Origin: Prorocentrum cordatum
Lineage: Eukaryota
Length of the DNA stretch: 64,000 nt
NCBI GenBank assembly: GCA_963575745.1
Contig: CAUYUJ010000015.1
Location: forward strand, 496,001 to 560,000
Direction: 5' to 3'
Positions 2,099-10,974 of the stretch are shown piece by piece. Made by a program: the position numbers and the translations under genes. Positions within the stretch are counted from its first letter, which is position 1, and each line of letters starts with the position of its first letter. Below the pieces are notes generated by a model. The model saw only the letters and a program-made list of their open reading frames with translations, made no database searches and was not told the origin of the DNA.

Positions 2099-2233
2099 AT
2101 CATTATCATATTCTTCATAGTCGTTATCATTATCATTATTCTCCTCTTCCCCGTCCTCGCCGTTTGCCATGAGTGGTTCAAACCTACAAGCCGAGAGATC
2201 TAGTCAACTGCTTGTTGACTAATAGGTTAGCTG

Positions 2234-4415
2234 ATGGCTAACGTAATATGTGGCGGCATGAAGACATTAGGCGTTGCATTGGAGCTCGCAGGGAAAACGA
2301 ATCAAATCCTGGCAGACACGGACGCCCAAGTCAGCAATCAGAAGTTGCAGTATTTGACGGAAAAGCCAATCATCAAATTTGACGCTCCTGTGTTAAACGA
2401 AATTGCGGACTTACCCATGTACGCATTTCCACCATCGAACGTTAGTCCGAGAAACAAATGGGTGCTTGATTGCGTGCTCGAATGGAACGGGTCGTTTAAC
2501 GACGATGATCTTGCAGCTGCAAAGACTTTGGCAAATAATTTCAACGGAAGCACTGATTGGAGTGACCATTGGGACGGCGAGTACAATGACCATGTGAAAG
2601 GATTGATAGCAAAAGAGATGGAGACGGGCAACTACCAAAACTTACCACAACCGTTCGGCCCGTCGAGCTCGTGGCAAGTGGCGTGCACAATGCAACTTGC
2701 AATTGTGCCCGCCGGCGATAAGTGGCACATTGTCAAACACCTCATTTTCGACGAGTTACAGAAGCTTGTGAAAGTGGAAGCAGAACTCGCGCGTGGCTCT
2801 GTATACTGCCATTCGTGGTGGCCTCACAACCTTTATAACACGAAAAAGATATTCCAGAAAATCTTCGAAGGGCTTGGTGGGTTCCAGGTTCGGCACGGCA
2901 AATGGGCAGGAGATAGTGACGAGAAGAAGCCTGTTGATTTCAGCAAAATCGCAGCCGGCTATGCGTTTATGCGAAAGATGAGGCCGTCCTCAAACAACGA
3001 AGGGCAATTCGCAGAGTGGGTGGACATCTGGGCCAAGAAGCCAGAGAGCCCAATCTTGGATTGGTCAGAAGCAAAGTGCAGATCGTTTTTGGCATGTTGT
3101 GCGAGAGGCGTGTCCACGGCCAGGACGATTTACTTCAATTTCACCACTTACAAGGATTTGAAACCGTGGTTCTTGGACTTGGTGCTGAAAGATAAGATTG
3201 CGACGCATACAGAGCATGGAGTTCTATGGATCGGAATTTCGGAATGCGGTAAAAGCTCGCGTTCAAGGACACGGTTTCATGGTGTCCAATCATTGGATAG
3301 CGACAGAGAAAAGGGATGACATGCAACCTGCTGTGGCGACGGCCAAATTTATTGACATGTTCAGAGGCGAAAGAAACACCGTGTTCAAACCGTGTATATT
3401 TGATGACGGAAAGTTCTATCAGCTCGGCGCCGACCTTGTGAAAGCTTTGTTGTACCCCGCGGAGGTAGACGCCCTCCTATGCGCCAGATGGGGTGGATCT
3501 GGATTCGACATGTATTCGTGCCGCCAGGCAGTAAGTCAACAATTCGACAGCAAATTGGCCAAGAAATTTGCACGGAAAGATGAGATCTCCGACAAGGATT
3601 GGCAGAAGCTTATTATGCCGTCAATTGATAAAGAAGCAGACGAAGAGGACTGGGTAGCATTCAGGCGTCGTTTCCACACCATCGTCGTCACTCGCGACGG
3701 CATCATCCACCGCAATGCTACCAAGGAGTTAGTGGACGTCCCCGTTATCCATTGGTCGGACGGCGAAGAGATGGACATATTCAAACCGGAGGTGAAAATC
3801 CTTATGCAGAAATGGAAAAATGGACAACTGAAGGAGGTTCCGCCGAATTACCATGACGATGTAAAGTGGTCTTTGGAATATTTGAACCGGGCTATGAAGG
3901 GCGAGCCGATTCCCTCGTCGAGAACGATCAGGGCTGCATCTGCGCGGGGTGCCAGAGGATTATTCAATGATCCAGCAATGTCGTCTCAGTCATACGATCA
4001 TCCTTACTTAACAAATGCCGGGTTTAGCTCTGTGGATCGCAGCGCGAATGTAGCTCCGATTTCGTTTTGTGGCAACCTCGAGGACGTGCAAGAGATGCAG
4101 CGCATTCTAGCAACGAAGGCAGAGCCTCACAACGGATGCGAGTTTGACCTGACTGCTGATACGCCCGAGAGGAAGCGTCACAAGGCAGAGGAACTAGAGT
4201 GTCCTGTCGCACCCAAGAAAGAGAAGAACACGGCCGAGGCAGAGCTAGCCGACGAAGATGCGGACATGGAGAGAGCGTGGCAGGAAATTGACAGGGAGGA
4301 ACTGGCCCGCACTGTTCATGAGTCTCGTGTCAACGCGGGAATGTCTGCGGGTTCCCGCCCAGGCAACATCGAAGAGGAAGAGGGCCCGTTTGGTCATCAA
4401 CAGGCGGGCATGTAA
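2234..4415 (+). CDS. SF3/Rep-type P-loop helicase-like protein, split by one frameshift near 3270 (ORFs 2234..3319 + 3198..4415)
   Basis: Walker A VLWIGISECGKS at the end of the first ORF; Walker B PCIFDD, ARWG and an arginine-finger-like AFRRRF in the second ORF; spacing resembles CRESS-virus Rep helicase domains. Confidence 0.65.
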
Positions 4416-5261
4416 GAAATGCATATTGCATTGAAAGCGGTTCGCACAAACTTTCAAACTCCGCGATGCGAATCTGAAGTCGGTTGCTTGCTGACAACTC
4501 TGCACTTTATGATCTAATTGCGTACCTCTGTGTAGTTGAGATTTTGACTGATGGGATAATGAGTTGTGGCTTTCAGTGTTGTCAACTGCTGGTTGACTGT
4601 TCTTATCGTTAAGCTTGCTGTTGGTTGTGTCAACTGATGGTTGACTCTTCAGTTCCAACATTGCTTCCGCATTGCCATGCAGATGGCAAAGATCCGTTGA
4701 TTTGTTATGTCAACAGCTGGTTGACTGTGCCTGGCGCCGAGCAATGCTTTCCGCCTTCGTTCATTGACAGTTGCCAATCGTGTGGCTTAAGAACAAGAAG
4801 CTGATGCATCTCTCAAATGTTGGTATACTATTGCCAACATATCATTCTCTTTTGACCCAAAACATCATCATTTTGCATAATCATTCATCGCTCTCTTTCA
4901 TATTCTTCCTTCCTCTTTCCTCCTCGTTTAGTTTCCTATTTCTTCGTCGATCCTCATTCGTTTTCCCTTCCATGATCCCTCTTCTTCCCCCGCGCACTCA
5001 TCATCGTCACTCCCCCCCTCGTCCCCTCGGGGCAAAATGCACCCAGTTCACGAGCGCGCCGCTCGTGCAGGGATGCAGAAATGCCCGGTGCTAATGAAAG
5101 CACATCTCCCCTGTGTCATCCTCTTCCTGCACTGTCATCATCCATCATTTACGTTCGTCTTCATCTTTCTTCTGTCGTTCCTTATCCTCCCTCGCCCTCC
5201 TGGCCAGAGGCTCAAGAGGGCATTGTAGAACGCCAACGTCTGCTGGACGTCCTTATCTGCA

Positions 5262-9537: not shown

Positions 9538-9703
9538 AGAGAGACAAGAGAGGTAGACAGAGAGAAAGAGAGACAGAGAGAGAGATGGAGAGATAGCGAT
9601 TGAGGGAGAGAGAGAGGGGAGAGACAAAAACGGCGGGAAGAGGGGGGAGAGGAGGGGTGAAGTAGGAGAGGGAGAGGGAAGGGCCGCTGCCACCGGGCTC
9701 AAA

Positions 9704-10573
9704 TTGAGTAATGTTGTTGTGGGTTTGTGTAACCGGCACCGATACACTGGCGCCAGTTTCTGCATGATGATGGATTTGGAGATAGCGCGCCCAGCACCTG
9801 CGATGGAACAGAGCCGCATTGAGCAGTCATTGCCATATCGCAAACTTATTCTGTCAGACTTACACCAGCCGGTTCCCAGTGGCGATGAGAACGCAGCAGC
9901 GTTGGAAGCTCGATTGACGACAGCAACTTCGAATAACGTTCAATGGCTGAAGGCAGGTGGCGCACATGGGCCGCTTTTCGACATCACGGGCTTCGACACT
10001 GAAGGAGATGATAACAGTCCGTATACGACGTACACGCAGATGCCGGAGCTTCAAGGAGTGACGTTGGGATTGGTCATGTGGGGCTCCCCTCATTGGTCAG
10101 ATTCGCCAGATGGTACTACGCAGCATTTCAGAGACTCCAACACATTCAAAACGAACGCGTTCGAGTCGATGTCATGGCTCAGTGGGTCAGCCTTCATCAT
10201 CGAGACATTCCCCAGTCGATACGGACCCGAGTTCTGGCATCCTGCGTATAACAAGAAGGGCGTTGCGGATACGCGTGCCAAGCGCAGTTTACTTGTGACA
10301 GAGGGTTTCTTTCGTGAATACAGACCTCTGGGGTCAGGGGCTGAGTTTCGATTCCTTCAAGATGAGAGCGAAGCAACCATGGTTGCAATGTTGGTGCCGC
10401 AGAGATTCTCTCAGTGCGTGATTTGGAAGGGTCACCAAGTCGACGTAGGGATGACGCTAATCCACATTATGAACCATCTGGAAGATCAAGAGCGCGCGCT
10501 GGAACTTGGCGGGCAACATTATGGCCTTTCTTACGAGATGCACCTCGCGTGGCAAGAACTGTCGGTTGCTTGA
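9704..10573 (+). CDS. Hypothetical protein (~270-290 aa)
   Basis: Uninterrupted complex ORF, likely starting at the MMM near 9764, followed by four palindrome copies. Confidence 0.7.
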   Translation: MSNVVVGLCNRHRYTGASFCMMMDLEIARPAPAMEQSRIEQSLPYRKLILSDLHQPVPSGDENAAALEARLTTATSNNVQWLKAGGAHGPLFDITGFDTEGDDNSPYTTYTQMPELQGVTLGLVMWGSPHWSDSPDGTTQHFRDSNTFKTNAFESMSWLSGSAFIIETFPSRYGPEFWHPAYNKKGVADTRAKRSLLVTEGFFREYRPLGSGAEFRFLQDESEATMVAMLVPQRFSQCVIWKGHQVDVGMTLIHIMNHLEDQERALELGGQHYGLSYEMHLAWQELSVA

Positions 10574-10974
10574 AGCGTTGGCGAAATTACATCCACGTGT
10601 TCGTTAAGTGTCAATTGATGGTTGACCGACTATGTCTCCGCTGTAGTTACCGTTATGCACAATTTCATTTGAGTGTCAACTGCTGGTTGTCCGCGTCTGT
10701 TTCCGCTGTAGTTACTGTTGTGTACTGTTCCATTCATATGTCAACTGATGGTTGACCGATCATGCCTGCGTTGCGCGTGATAATACTCTGCGTTTGTTGC
10801 GCACCTGTATAGAGTGTCAACTGCTGGTTGACCATTTTTGGCAACGCGCGACGTGATGCACGGACAAATGCAAAAGGGGGGAGAGGGAGAGAGCAAGAGA
10901 GAGGGAGGCAGAGAGAGAGAGAGAGAGAAACAAAAAAGGGAACACATGATCACGAGATAGGAAGAGACGAAAGA

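Follow-up and report, generated by a model that had tools for sequence, protein, structure and literature searches.

A 64,000-nt stretch of the Prorocentrum cordatum genome (contig CAUYUJ010000015.1, positions 496,001 to 560,000), which was analyzed over its full length and is called the window below, carries an island of four genes at about 2203-10832 in which every gene is followed by three or four copies of the palindrome GTCAAC-N5-GTTGAC. This island is very probably one representative of an element that exists in many copies and has at its center one gene for a Rep-like protein and one for a KDZ-like transposase. Our leading interpretation, to which we assign a probability of about 40%, is that the element is transposon-like, that the window holds a decayed copy of it, and that the palindromes are transcribed hairpins at the ends of its genes. 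A DNA transposon of several genes that carries a conserved hairpin signal of its own at the gene ends would be previously undescribed. Dinoflagellate genes are read in long one-directional arrays and finished by trans-splicing, and very little is known about the marking of gene ends and the control of mobile DNA in these organisms. The element offers an exact 18-base signal after each gene that is conserved between distant relatives, together with a very large unnamed protein family of predicted virus-Rep-like fold (903 representatives) that travels with a compact KDZ-type transposase. If confirmed, it would represent a new kind of multi-gene DNA transposon in marine protists.

Palindromes behind the genes of the island

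Exact copies of GTCAAC-N5-GTTGAC numbered 12 in the 64-kb window, compared to 0.00 expected from 100 dinucleotide-preserving shuffles. When up to two mismatches were allowed, the scan returned 15 matches, comprising the 12 exact copies, two copies with a single mismatch (10610, GTCAAT..GTTGAC; 10675, GTCAAC..GTTGTC) and one match with two mismatches at 10439 inside open reading frame 4 (ORF4), which was at chance level (2.91 expected) and was not counted. The 14 accepted palindromes span 2203-10832, are all intergenic and are distributed along the island as 1 + 3 + 3 + 3 + 4, with none in the remaining 53 kb. Thirteen of them begin 18-396 nt past a stop codon, at three or four per gene and never within an ORF; the distance from the stop codon to the first palindrome is 165 nt for ORF1, 18 nt for ORF2, 100 nt for ORF3 and 36 nt for ORF4. 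The remaining copy (2203-2219) ends 14 nt ahead of the ATG of ORF1 (2234). The core is TGCTG in nine copies, TGATG in three, and AGCTG and TGCTT in one each, and it is oriented with the genes in every case. A T precedes all 13 downstream copies, so that the conserved unit is TGTCAAC-TGCTG-GTTGAC (18 nt). The mapped coordinates thus bear out a preliminary description of this DNA, which had claimed 14 intergenic palindromes, none elsewhere, a 1 + 3 + 3 + 3 + 4 grouping behind four stop codons, and an asymmetric core that always reads with the genes (14/14 copies). Its claim of a lower GC content than that of the host DNA also stood: the four genes are co-oriented, and the GC content of the island is 0.47-0.52, against 0.53-0.74 over most of 17-64 kb. 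The features of the island are as follows.

2203..2219, + strand: leftmost palindrome, GTCAAC-TGCTT-GTTGAC, with an 8-bp stem when the TA..TA flanks are included; left edge of the island
2226..2242, + strand: variant hairpin, GTTAGC-TGATG-GCTAAC, with both arm changes compensatory and the loop kept; the ORF1 ATG lies in the loop
2234..4415, + strand: ORF1, Rep-like; predicted alpha/beta domain at the N-terminus, followed by a P-loop ATPase of the SF3 type
4581..4725, + strand: palindrome cluster 1, copies at 4581, 4629 and 4709; begins 165 nt past the ORF1 stop
4830..5200, + strand: low-complexity leader before ORF2, ATCAT-like and then CT-rich, as read from the sequence
5262..6604, + strand: ORF2, putative compact KDZ-like DDE transposase with an N-terminal Cys cluster
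6623..6806, + strand: palindrome cluster 2, copies at 6623, 6670 and 6790, inside a 47-nt local repeat; begins 18 nt past the ORF2 stop
7196..8497, + strand: ORF3, with a helical N-domain (~75 aa), a disordered acidic/Ser-rich linker and an alpha/beta C-domain (~230 aa)
8598..8910, + strand: palindrome cluster 3, copies at 8598, 8822 and 8894
9009..9540, + strand: host-type composite repeat (D16 unit, CT-rich tract, (TAG)n) between ORF3 and ORF4
9764..10573, + strand: ORF4, 269 aa
10610..10832, + strand: palindrome cluster 4, copies at 10610, 10675, 10740 and 10816; contains a 65-nt local repeat and closes the island on the right

Further evidence came from a scan of metagenome assemblies for two GTCAAC-N5-GTTGAC palindromes lying 28-58 nt apart, with any core. 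This pattern was found at 102 loci, and only one of them, L021, was related to the island; it was also the sole match when the loci were searched with six island ORF pieces by tblastn. L021 is a marine metagenome contig of 1009 bp. It codes for the C-domain of a protein related to ORF3 (192 aligned aa, 50.5% identity, E 1e-61), and four palindromes follow in the orientation of the gene, as in the window. In order, these are GTCGAC-TGATC-GTCGAC, GTCAAC-TGATC-GTTGAC, GTCAAC-TGCTA-GTTGAC and GTCAAC-TGATC-GTTGAC. The first one, in which both arms are altered with their pairing kept, overlaps the TGA stop codon, which means that transcription must include this copy at the least. Judged by eye, the spacers between the palindromes are unlike those of the window. 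The contig was located via the motif; its ORF3 homology is independent of that search. Since the ORF3 relative carries four such palindromes in equal orientation, the motif is not a local accident, and a comparison of the two sequences indicates that its place, number and orientation have been kept across a protein divergence of about 50%.

In the window and on L021 taken together, the core reads in the sense direction in six of six independent clusters (five in the window plus L021; chance about 1/32), which fits a strand-specific role. In sense RNA, the U and the G at the ends of the loop are able to pair, and predicted folds show a 7-bp stem with a triloop; the C>T mismatch at 10610 still pairs, as G-U. 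Arm variants that preserve the stem are GTCGAC..GTCGAC on L021 and GTTAGC-TGATG-GCTAAC at 2226. The latter, with its compensated arms and matching loop, is suggestive only as a relative of the motif. Perfect hairpins of the 6-5-6 type numbered 41 in the window and about 20 in shuffles, and a TG[AC]TN loop was present in just 2 of the 29 that lack GTCAAC. RNA folding of six segments gave three that were better than shuffles (z = -2.22, -2.97 and -3.63, the last for 2190-2255). A strand-specific role at gene ends is thus suggested by stop-codon adjacency, sense-oriented cores, pairing-preserving variants and the U-G-extended stem, and position and orientation favor an RNA 3' hairpin over a protein-binding or recombination site. 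An Rfam scan of the whole window returned no family at gathering score, and translated palindrome peptides were absent from the 183 proteins checked. A lone perfect 6-5-6 hairpin with a similar loop type, GCAGCC-TGATC-GGCTGC, lies at 37522-37538 in GC-rich host DNA and is probably due to chance.

The multicopy nature of the element became apparent when contigs were aligned to the island from four DNA sequencing runs, of which X1 is the likely source and three are metagenomes. Many diverged contigs covered ORF1 and ORF2 in all four runs. In a correction to the preliminary description, both genes carry a frameshift in the window copy. ORF1 is split over two frames (2234-3319 and 3216-4415) with the shift near 3269; insertion of CG behind 3269, which restores the frame, accounted for 101.7 of 120.1 summed depth in X1 and for all depth in runs X2 and X3. 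ORF2 is split into 5262-5492 and 5492-6604 by a shift at an A-run near 5482, and a deletion of two bases at 5482 that restores the frame accounted for 65.2 of 67.7 summed depth in X1. Most of the related variants restore the frames of both genes; the window copy is either decayed or bears assembly indels. Low-complexity leaders similar to the one before ORF2 are present at about 2090-2170 and at 6880-7130.

In our leading interpretation, the conserved core of the element would be the pair formed by the Rep-like gene and the gene for the compact KDZ-type DDE transposase, and each gene would constitute its own expression unit of a pyrimidine-rich low-complexity leader, the ORF and three to four copies of TGTCAAC-TG(C/A)TG-GTTGAC. 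We infer an action in RNA, a binding factor and an outcome: the palindrome would be transcribed in the 3' end of each message and fold into a 6- to 7-bp hairpin with a specific loop, a factor specific for both sequence and structure would recognize this hairpin, and as a result the 3' end would be formed or stabilized, or read-through into the next unit would be stopped. A block of read-through would matter in an array-transcribing host. By pure inference, ORF3 with its RS-rich linker may be a candidate for the hairpin-binding factor.

Several points weigh against this interpretation. The near-invariant arms fit base-specific DNA-protein contacts equally well, and the copy at 2203 precedes a gene, unless it once closed an upstream unit that is now lost. 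The T-T mismatch of the copy at 10675 disrupts the stem, three of the six folded segments were no better than shuffles (z = -0.92, 0.51 and 0.34), and no RNA polymerase II genes are known to end at short hairpins. Support from outside the window consists of one 1-kb contig, and it was the motif itself that served to find this contig. Moreover, the summed contig depth in X1 (about 80-140 for ORF1/ORF2, 7-14 for ORF3 and 20-30 for ORF4) is not a copy number, and we took it to mean solely that there are many diverged copies of ORF1 and ORF2.

The main competing explanation, which we consider possible but on the unlikely side, is that the palindromes are DNA binding sites for a protein of the element and function as internal or terminal sites of transposition or replication. 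Candidate binders would be the origin-binding-like N-domain of ORF1, the Cys cluster of ORF2 and the helical N-domain of ORF3; as the palindrome is symmetric, any two copies could act as inverted ends. A palindrome is indeed present at the start (2203) and the end (10832) of the island, whose two edges share the palindrome alone, and contigs of run X2 cease to resemble the window within the first palindrome, immediately left of 2207. The near-invariance of the arms in the window and on L021 (GTCAAC unchanged in 12 of 14 and in three of four copies, respectively) points in the same direction, as does the presence within the motif of CAACTG, which we take to be a Myb-type site. The modeled fold of the ORF1 family resembles Rep68, NS1, E1 and CRESS Reps, which bind repeated or palindromic origin sites, and the apparently differing copy levels of ORF1/ORF2 and ORF3/ORF4 would fit separately mobilized segments. 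However, there is no reason for transposition or replication sites to lie beside stop codons or to occur at three to four per gene, and a uniform sense core in six of six clusters is unexpected of a symmetric dimer site. Arm variants that are altered but complementary would forfeit base-specific contacts. In addition, no terminal inverted repeats beyond the palindrome were noticed on reading, a result obtained without a dedicated search for terminal inverted repeats or target-site duplications.

It is improbable, in our estimate, that the palindromes are small selfish repeats (REP/BIME- or miniature-transposon-like) that spread locally and have no role for the genes. Such an origin would agree with the flanks, which are alike within a cluster (47-nt and 65-nt local repeats), showing growth by tandem duplication, and share only about 20 nt between clusters. 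It does not account for the absence of the palindrome from the remaining 53 kb, which are very rich in repeats, for the fact that no ORF is disrupted, or for the same place, number and orientation behind the 50%-identical ORF3 relative.

The metagenome scan also gave observations on the palindrome pair in other settings. In bacterial-looking contigs (L008-L109), paired GTCAAC-N5-GTTGAC was far above chance, with 102 loci for a 24-base pattern. Recurrent cores in unrelated loci were TATTG/TAATA in GC-rich contigs and AAGCT/AGCTT in AT-rich contigs, and these pairs are likely operator or iteron families unrelated to the island. Three loci with a core similar to that of the island were rejected as relatives: one lies upstream of a sigma-54 regulator (L024), one behind a PepSY_TM gene with four copies at a 23-nt period (L064), and one within a coding repeat (L005). 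IMG/VR scans with the 18-mer and with a motif-plus-half-site pattern gave seven single matches and three loci, respectively, all unrelated.

The proteins encoded by the island

ORF1 contains a Walker A (GISECGKS) and a Walker B (CIFDDG) motif, and Pfam gave no match for its pieces in the window. While a word-based search with the C-terminal half yielded two relatives, an exhaustive profile search with the family returned 903 representatives at E <= 0.001, of which 141 reached E <= 1e-30; their typical length is 600-750 aa. Among 42 full-length members, no Pfam family scored above its cut-off over the ORF1-like region, and a trace of Parvo_NS1 (15 bits, at Walker A) was seen in one of the 42; a sequence-profile search of the PDB gave no match. 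A structure model was compared at the fold level, for which we used the family member P0036, modeled from a 42-sequence alignment with a mean pLDDT of 81. Foldseek against the PDB placed AAV2 Rep68 at the top (E 5.5e-4, probability 0.95), followed by Vientovirus Rep, B19 NS1, Rep40, papillomavirus E1 and plasmid RepB. Against predicted viral structures (BFVD), 358 matches were obtained at E <= 0.001 (top E 3.5e-10, probability 1.0); all named ones among the top matches were CRESS-DNA virus Reps, with many rows nameless, and the alignments of 400-650 columns covered whole Reps. VIA-align confirmed the ATPase domain only (residues ~280-545, Z 8-9). For Rep40/Rep68, the alignment spanned residues 282-545 at Z 8.2-8.6, and PilT-type, Mg-chelatase and other ASCE ATPases scored equally well.

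Conserved residues of the ORF1 family include G313, G318, K319, D370, D371, N415 and R462, and the spacing of the Walker A, Walker B, Asn and Arg positions is one that we take to be SF3-like. An SF3-type P-loop ATPase domain is thus indicated by Foldseek, VIA-align and the conserved residues together. A conserved His pair was not found in the N-domain of the family, where the best candidates were K146 (36/40) and H147 (26/40). At position 222, the candidate for a catalytic Tyr, F is present in 23 of 39 members, Y in 14 and W in two; the window copy has Y. On the basis of the model, ORF1 is called a Rep-like fold with an SF3-type ATPase and is not filed as an HUH endonuclease, and, judging from these residues, the protein is probably devoid of nuclease activity. 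The label of a Rep-like helicase in the preliminary description thus held for the fold and the SF3 ATPase, but the HUH/Tyr motifs that true Reps have for nuclease activity are not conserved. In three of the runs, related contigs omit about 292 nt (2277-2570) of the N-terminal region of ORF1, and the same stretch is an insertion relative to the family members in the alignment.

For ORF2, the motifs DVVTDGN, DCGC (H-D-C-x-C), LDGYHSKKHTC (LDGYH-x-KKH-x-C) and NSQAAEQLW were identified. The window pieces gave no relevant Pfam family at E <= 1. Metagenome assemblies contained 24 relatives of 200-480 aa, and among 15 family members the KDZ-associated Cys cluster CxC5 (PF18718) was recognized in five (best E 1.8e-6) and the KDZ domain (PF18758) in one (E 0.0079, with the gathering score not reached). 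The 77-aa N-terminal piece of the window ORF2 has no Pfam match, yet it aligns with the Cys cluster of the family members. At least 90% conservation in the family alignment was found for D215, D331, D351, H354, H358, C360 and E377; these D, H, C and E residues are candidates for a catalytic role, an assignment that we base on KDZ/CACTA motifs. A sequence-profile search of the PDB with the family gave no match. On sequence evidence below the Pfam thresholds, the KDZ label is plausible, and the earlier naming of ORF2 as a KDZ transposase survives in weak family signatures, without a Pfam match of the window ORF2 itself.

ORF1 and ORF2 also occur together outside the window. The ORF1-family member P0040 (1387 aa) is one predicted protein that joins ORF1-like and ORF2-like parts: its C-terminal KDZ match reached 25.4 bits (cut-off 26.6), and the ORF2-family profile aligns over its full length with residues 948-1340 of P0040 (hhalign: E 7.7e-10, probability 96.5%). 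Furthermore, a contig of run X2 joins the end of ORF1 to the start of ORF2 (joint 4372 to 5256). This fusion and this joint demonstrate that the pair is kept elsewhere. No description of a pairing between a Rep-like SF3 ATPase and KDZ, or of the motif, was found in the literature searched, which included passages of PMC12730594, PMC8226300 and PMC11572971.

The N- and C-domains of ORF3 are conserved, and its linker ends in a conserved R-x-R-S-R-S-P. The C-domain of the family has many invariant Asp, His, Glu and Asn residues. ORF3 had been labeled an orphan, a label that gives way to nine clusters of relatives with 41-87% identity; these relatives are very rare, in a search space of 5.8 billion confined to the 8,000 candidates that share most words. 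Foldseek returned nothing for ORF3 at E <= 0.001, and the best VIA-align Z of 5.8, within the noise range, was to generic alpha/beta folds including several SPOUT-type rows. The fold searches that the preliminary description had proposed led to Rep folds for the ORF1 family and to no recognized fold for ORF3. ORF4 had no Pfam family and no IMG/VR relative. We propose that ORF3 and ORF4 are accessory or cargo genes of the element. A second copy of the composite repeat between ORF3 and ORF4 lies behind ORF4 at 10973-11245, and related units are found at 16254-16546; because copies flank the ORF4 unit, this unit may have a separate history. A joint from 9027 to 11003, present on a contig in runs X1 and X2, was considered as an empty site of ORF4 and rejected, since both of its sides lie in the repeat family; it is probably another copy of the composite repeat.

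The layout of the proteins and repeats bears on a further explanation, in which the palindromes would be single-strand recombination or nicking sites that delimit mobile one-gene cassettes, in the manner of attC or of a multipartite-CRESS-like concatemer. The modular arrangement of an ORF followed by hairpins, the strand bias of the palindrome copies and the Rep-like nature of one partner protein would suit such cassettes, as would the presence of ORF3 and its palindromes alone on L021 (a contig of just 1 kb) and the host-type repeat copies that bracket ORF4 and its cluster. We nevertheless judge it unlikely. Pfam scans revealed no tyrosine or serine recombinase in the island ORFs and no site-specific recombinase family in 49 further window ORFs, HUH and the catalytic Tyr are not conserved (F 23/39 and Y 14/39 at position 222), and the loops are of 5 nt and not the nonanucleotide of Rep origins. 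There are three to four sites per module instead of one, and the ORF1-ORF2 order that is kept elsewhere suggests a fixed core rather than free shuffling.

A combination of functions is likewise a long shot: the palindromes might form a portable hairpin module with two roles, terminating transcripts and delimiting units that can be mobilized. Hairpins extruded from one strand would then be the substrate of the Rep-like helicase and the KDZ-type transposase, and any ORF bracketed by palindromes could be excised, copied or captured. Among eukaryotes, such a module would correspond to integron cassettes or to REP/RAYT systems, in a nucleosome-poor, array-transcribed dinoflagellate genome.

Comparison with known systems

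The element did not fully qualify as any of the systems with which it was compared, namely, KDZ transposons, viral Rep elements, the mimivirus hairpin rule, bacterial REP and integron attC. Its likeness to KDZ (Kyakuja-Dileera-Zisupton) transposons consists of the N-terminal Cys cluster of the ORF2 family (CxC5 in five of 15 members), a conserved D..D..H-x3-H-x-C..E pattern that may be that of a DDE core, and weak matches to the KDZ domain (one of 15 members, and P0040). Unlike in those transposons, the transposase of the island is paired with a Rep-like SF3 ATPase and is small (~440 aa), the usual KDZ transposase being about twice the size of ORF2. KDZ elements carry extra genes, and the target-site duplication of Zisupton is 8 bp (PMC12730594).

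The likeness to CRESS Reps and parvoviral Rep/NS1 lies in the predicted fold, with whole-Rep matches in BFVD and matches to Rep68, Vientovirus Rep and B19 NS1 in the PDB. In contrast to these proteins, the ORF1 family shows no sequence-level relation beyond the 15-bit Parvo_NS1 trace in one of 42 members, has no conserved HUH or catalytic Tyr, and consists of proteins of 600-750 aa with a long disordered tail. Its genes lie in chromosomal DNA, exist in many copies and have a gene for a putative DDE transposase as a neighbor, and the Z of only 8-9 for the ATPase domain is tied with PilT-type and Mg-chelatase folds. No origin stem-loop with a nonanucleotide was found; the sole recurrent hairpin has a 5-nt loop and a 6- to 7-bp stem and is present in 14 copies.

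An integrated virus (giant, polinton-like or CRESS) was not indicated by any hallmark or relative. IMG/VR protein scans gave no relative of the ORF1 C-half, ORF2, ORF3 or ORF4, a megablast search of a phage collection gave no match, and Pfam scans of the island ORFs and the 49 further window ORFs detected no capsid family. The sole viral link, seen in the model, is the fold-level likeness of ORF1 to CRESS Reps. The initial idea of a composite mobile or viral element with its own cis-signal is thus retained for the mobile part, given the many diverged copies, and finds no support for the viral one.

In mimiviruses, palindromes capable of forming hairpins follow almost all genes and are regarded as marks of the transcript end; they are AT-rich, occur once per gene and have no common sequence. 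The palindromes of the island likewise lie just 3' of genes, but one 18-nt sequence is repeated three to four times per gene and conserved between distant relatives, and the island resides in a cellular genome without a giant-virus gene. Bacterial REP/BIME are short conserved palindromes that cluster in the 3' flanks of genes and are linked to RAYT transposases of the HUH fold. The island palindromes are also short, conserved and clustered 3' of genes. They differ in being eukaryotic, in a partner protein without HUH/Tyr, and in being confined to one element (within 64 kb). Integron attC is a palindromic site, folded as a single strand, that occurs once after each promoterless cassette ORF in uniform orientation. 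While the island palindromes also follow ORFs in uniform orientation, the island has no integrase, each of its genes has three to four perfect copies where a cassette has a single imperfect site, and the order of the core genes is apparently fixed.

Other sequences in the window

The rest of the window is GC-rich, packed with tandem repeats and poor in recognizable genes. The region 11255-12325 holds arrays of a 27-nt palindromic unit (9-bp arms, 8-nt loop) that occurs in either orientation. Summed contig depth over the bin 10998-11300 reached 91,636 in X1 and thousands in the three metagenome runs, which identifies the 27-nt unit as a very abundant satellite. One family of 89-nt tandem repeats forms the arrays at 12540-12880, 17134-17566 and 19510-20985. 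GT-rich arrays at 39476-41488 (2 kb) and 48638-53106 (4.5 kb) are composed of the units GTGCGTGT and GTGTGTGT and display an extreme strand skew.

A 21-mer at 18288-18308 (+ strand) is one base off the dinoflagellate spliced leader, with GT directly after it; the leader sequence used for this comparison is printed in the dinoflagellate literature. Its presence points to a host that is probably a dinoflagellate. The 21-mer is either a copy of the leader-RNA gene or the relic leader of a retroposed gene. At 23000-29000 (+ strand), there is a second block of lower GC content (0.51-0.62) with long same-strand ORFs, including 26192-28489 (766 aa). Pfam recognized no family in the ORFs of this block, which may be another unrecognized element. 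Two ORFs with WW domains are located at 33072-34676 (- strand, E 8e-11) and 43162-44496 (- strand, E 6e-5), and these domains were the sole host-type protein domains recognized by Pfam among the 49 window ORFs scanned.

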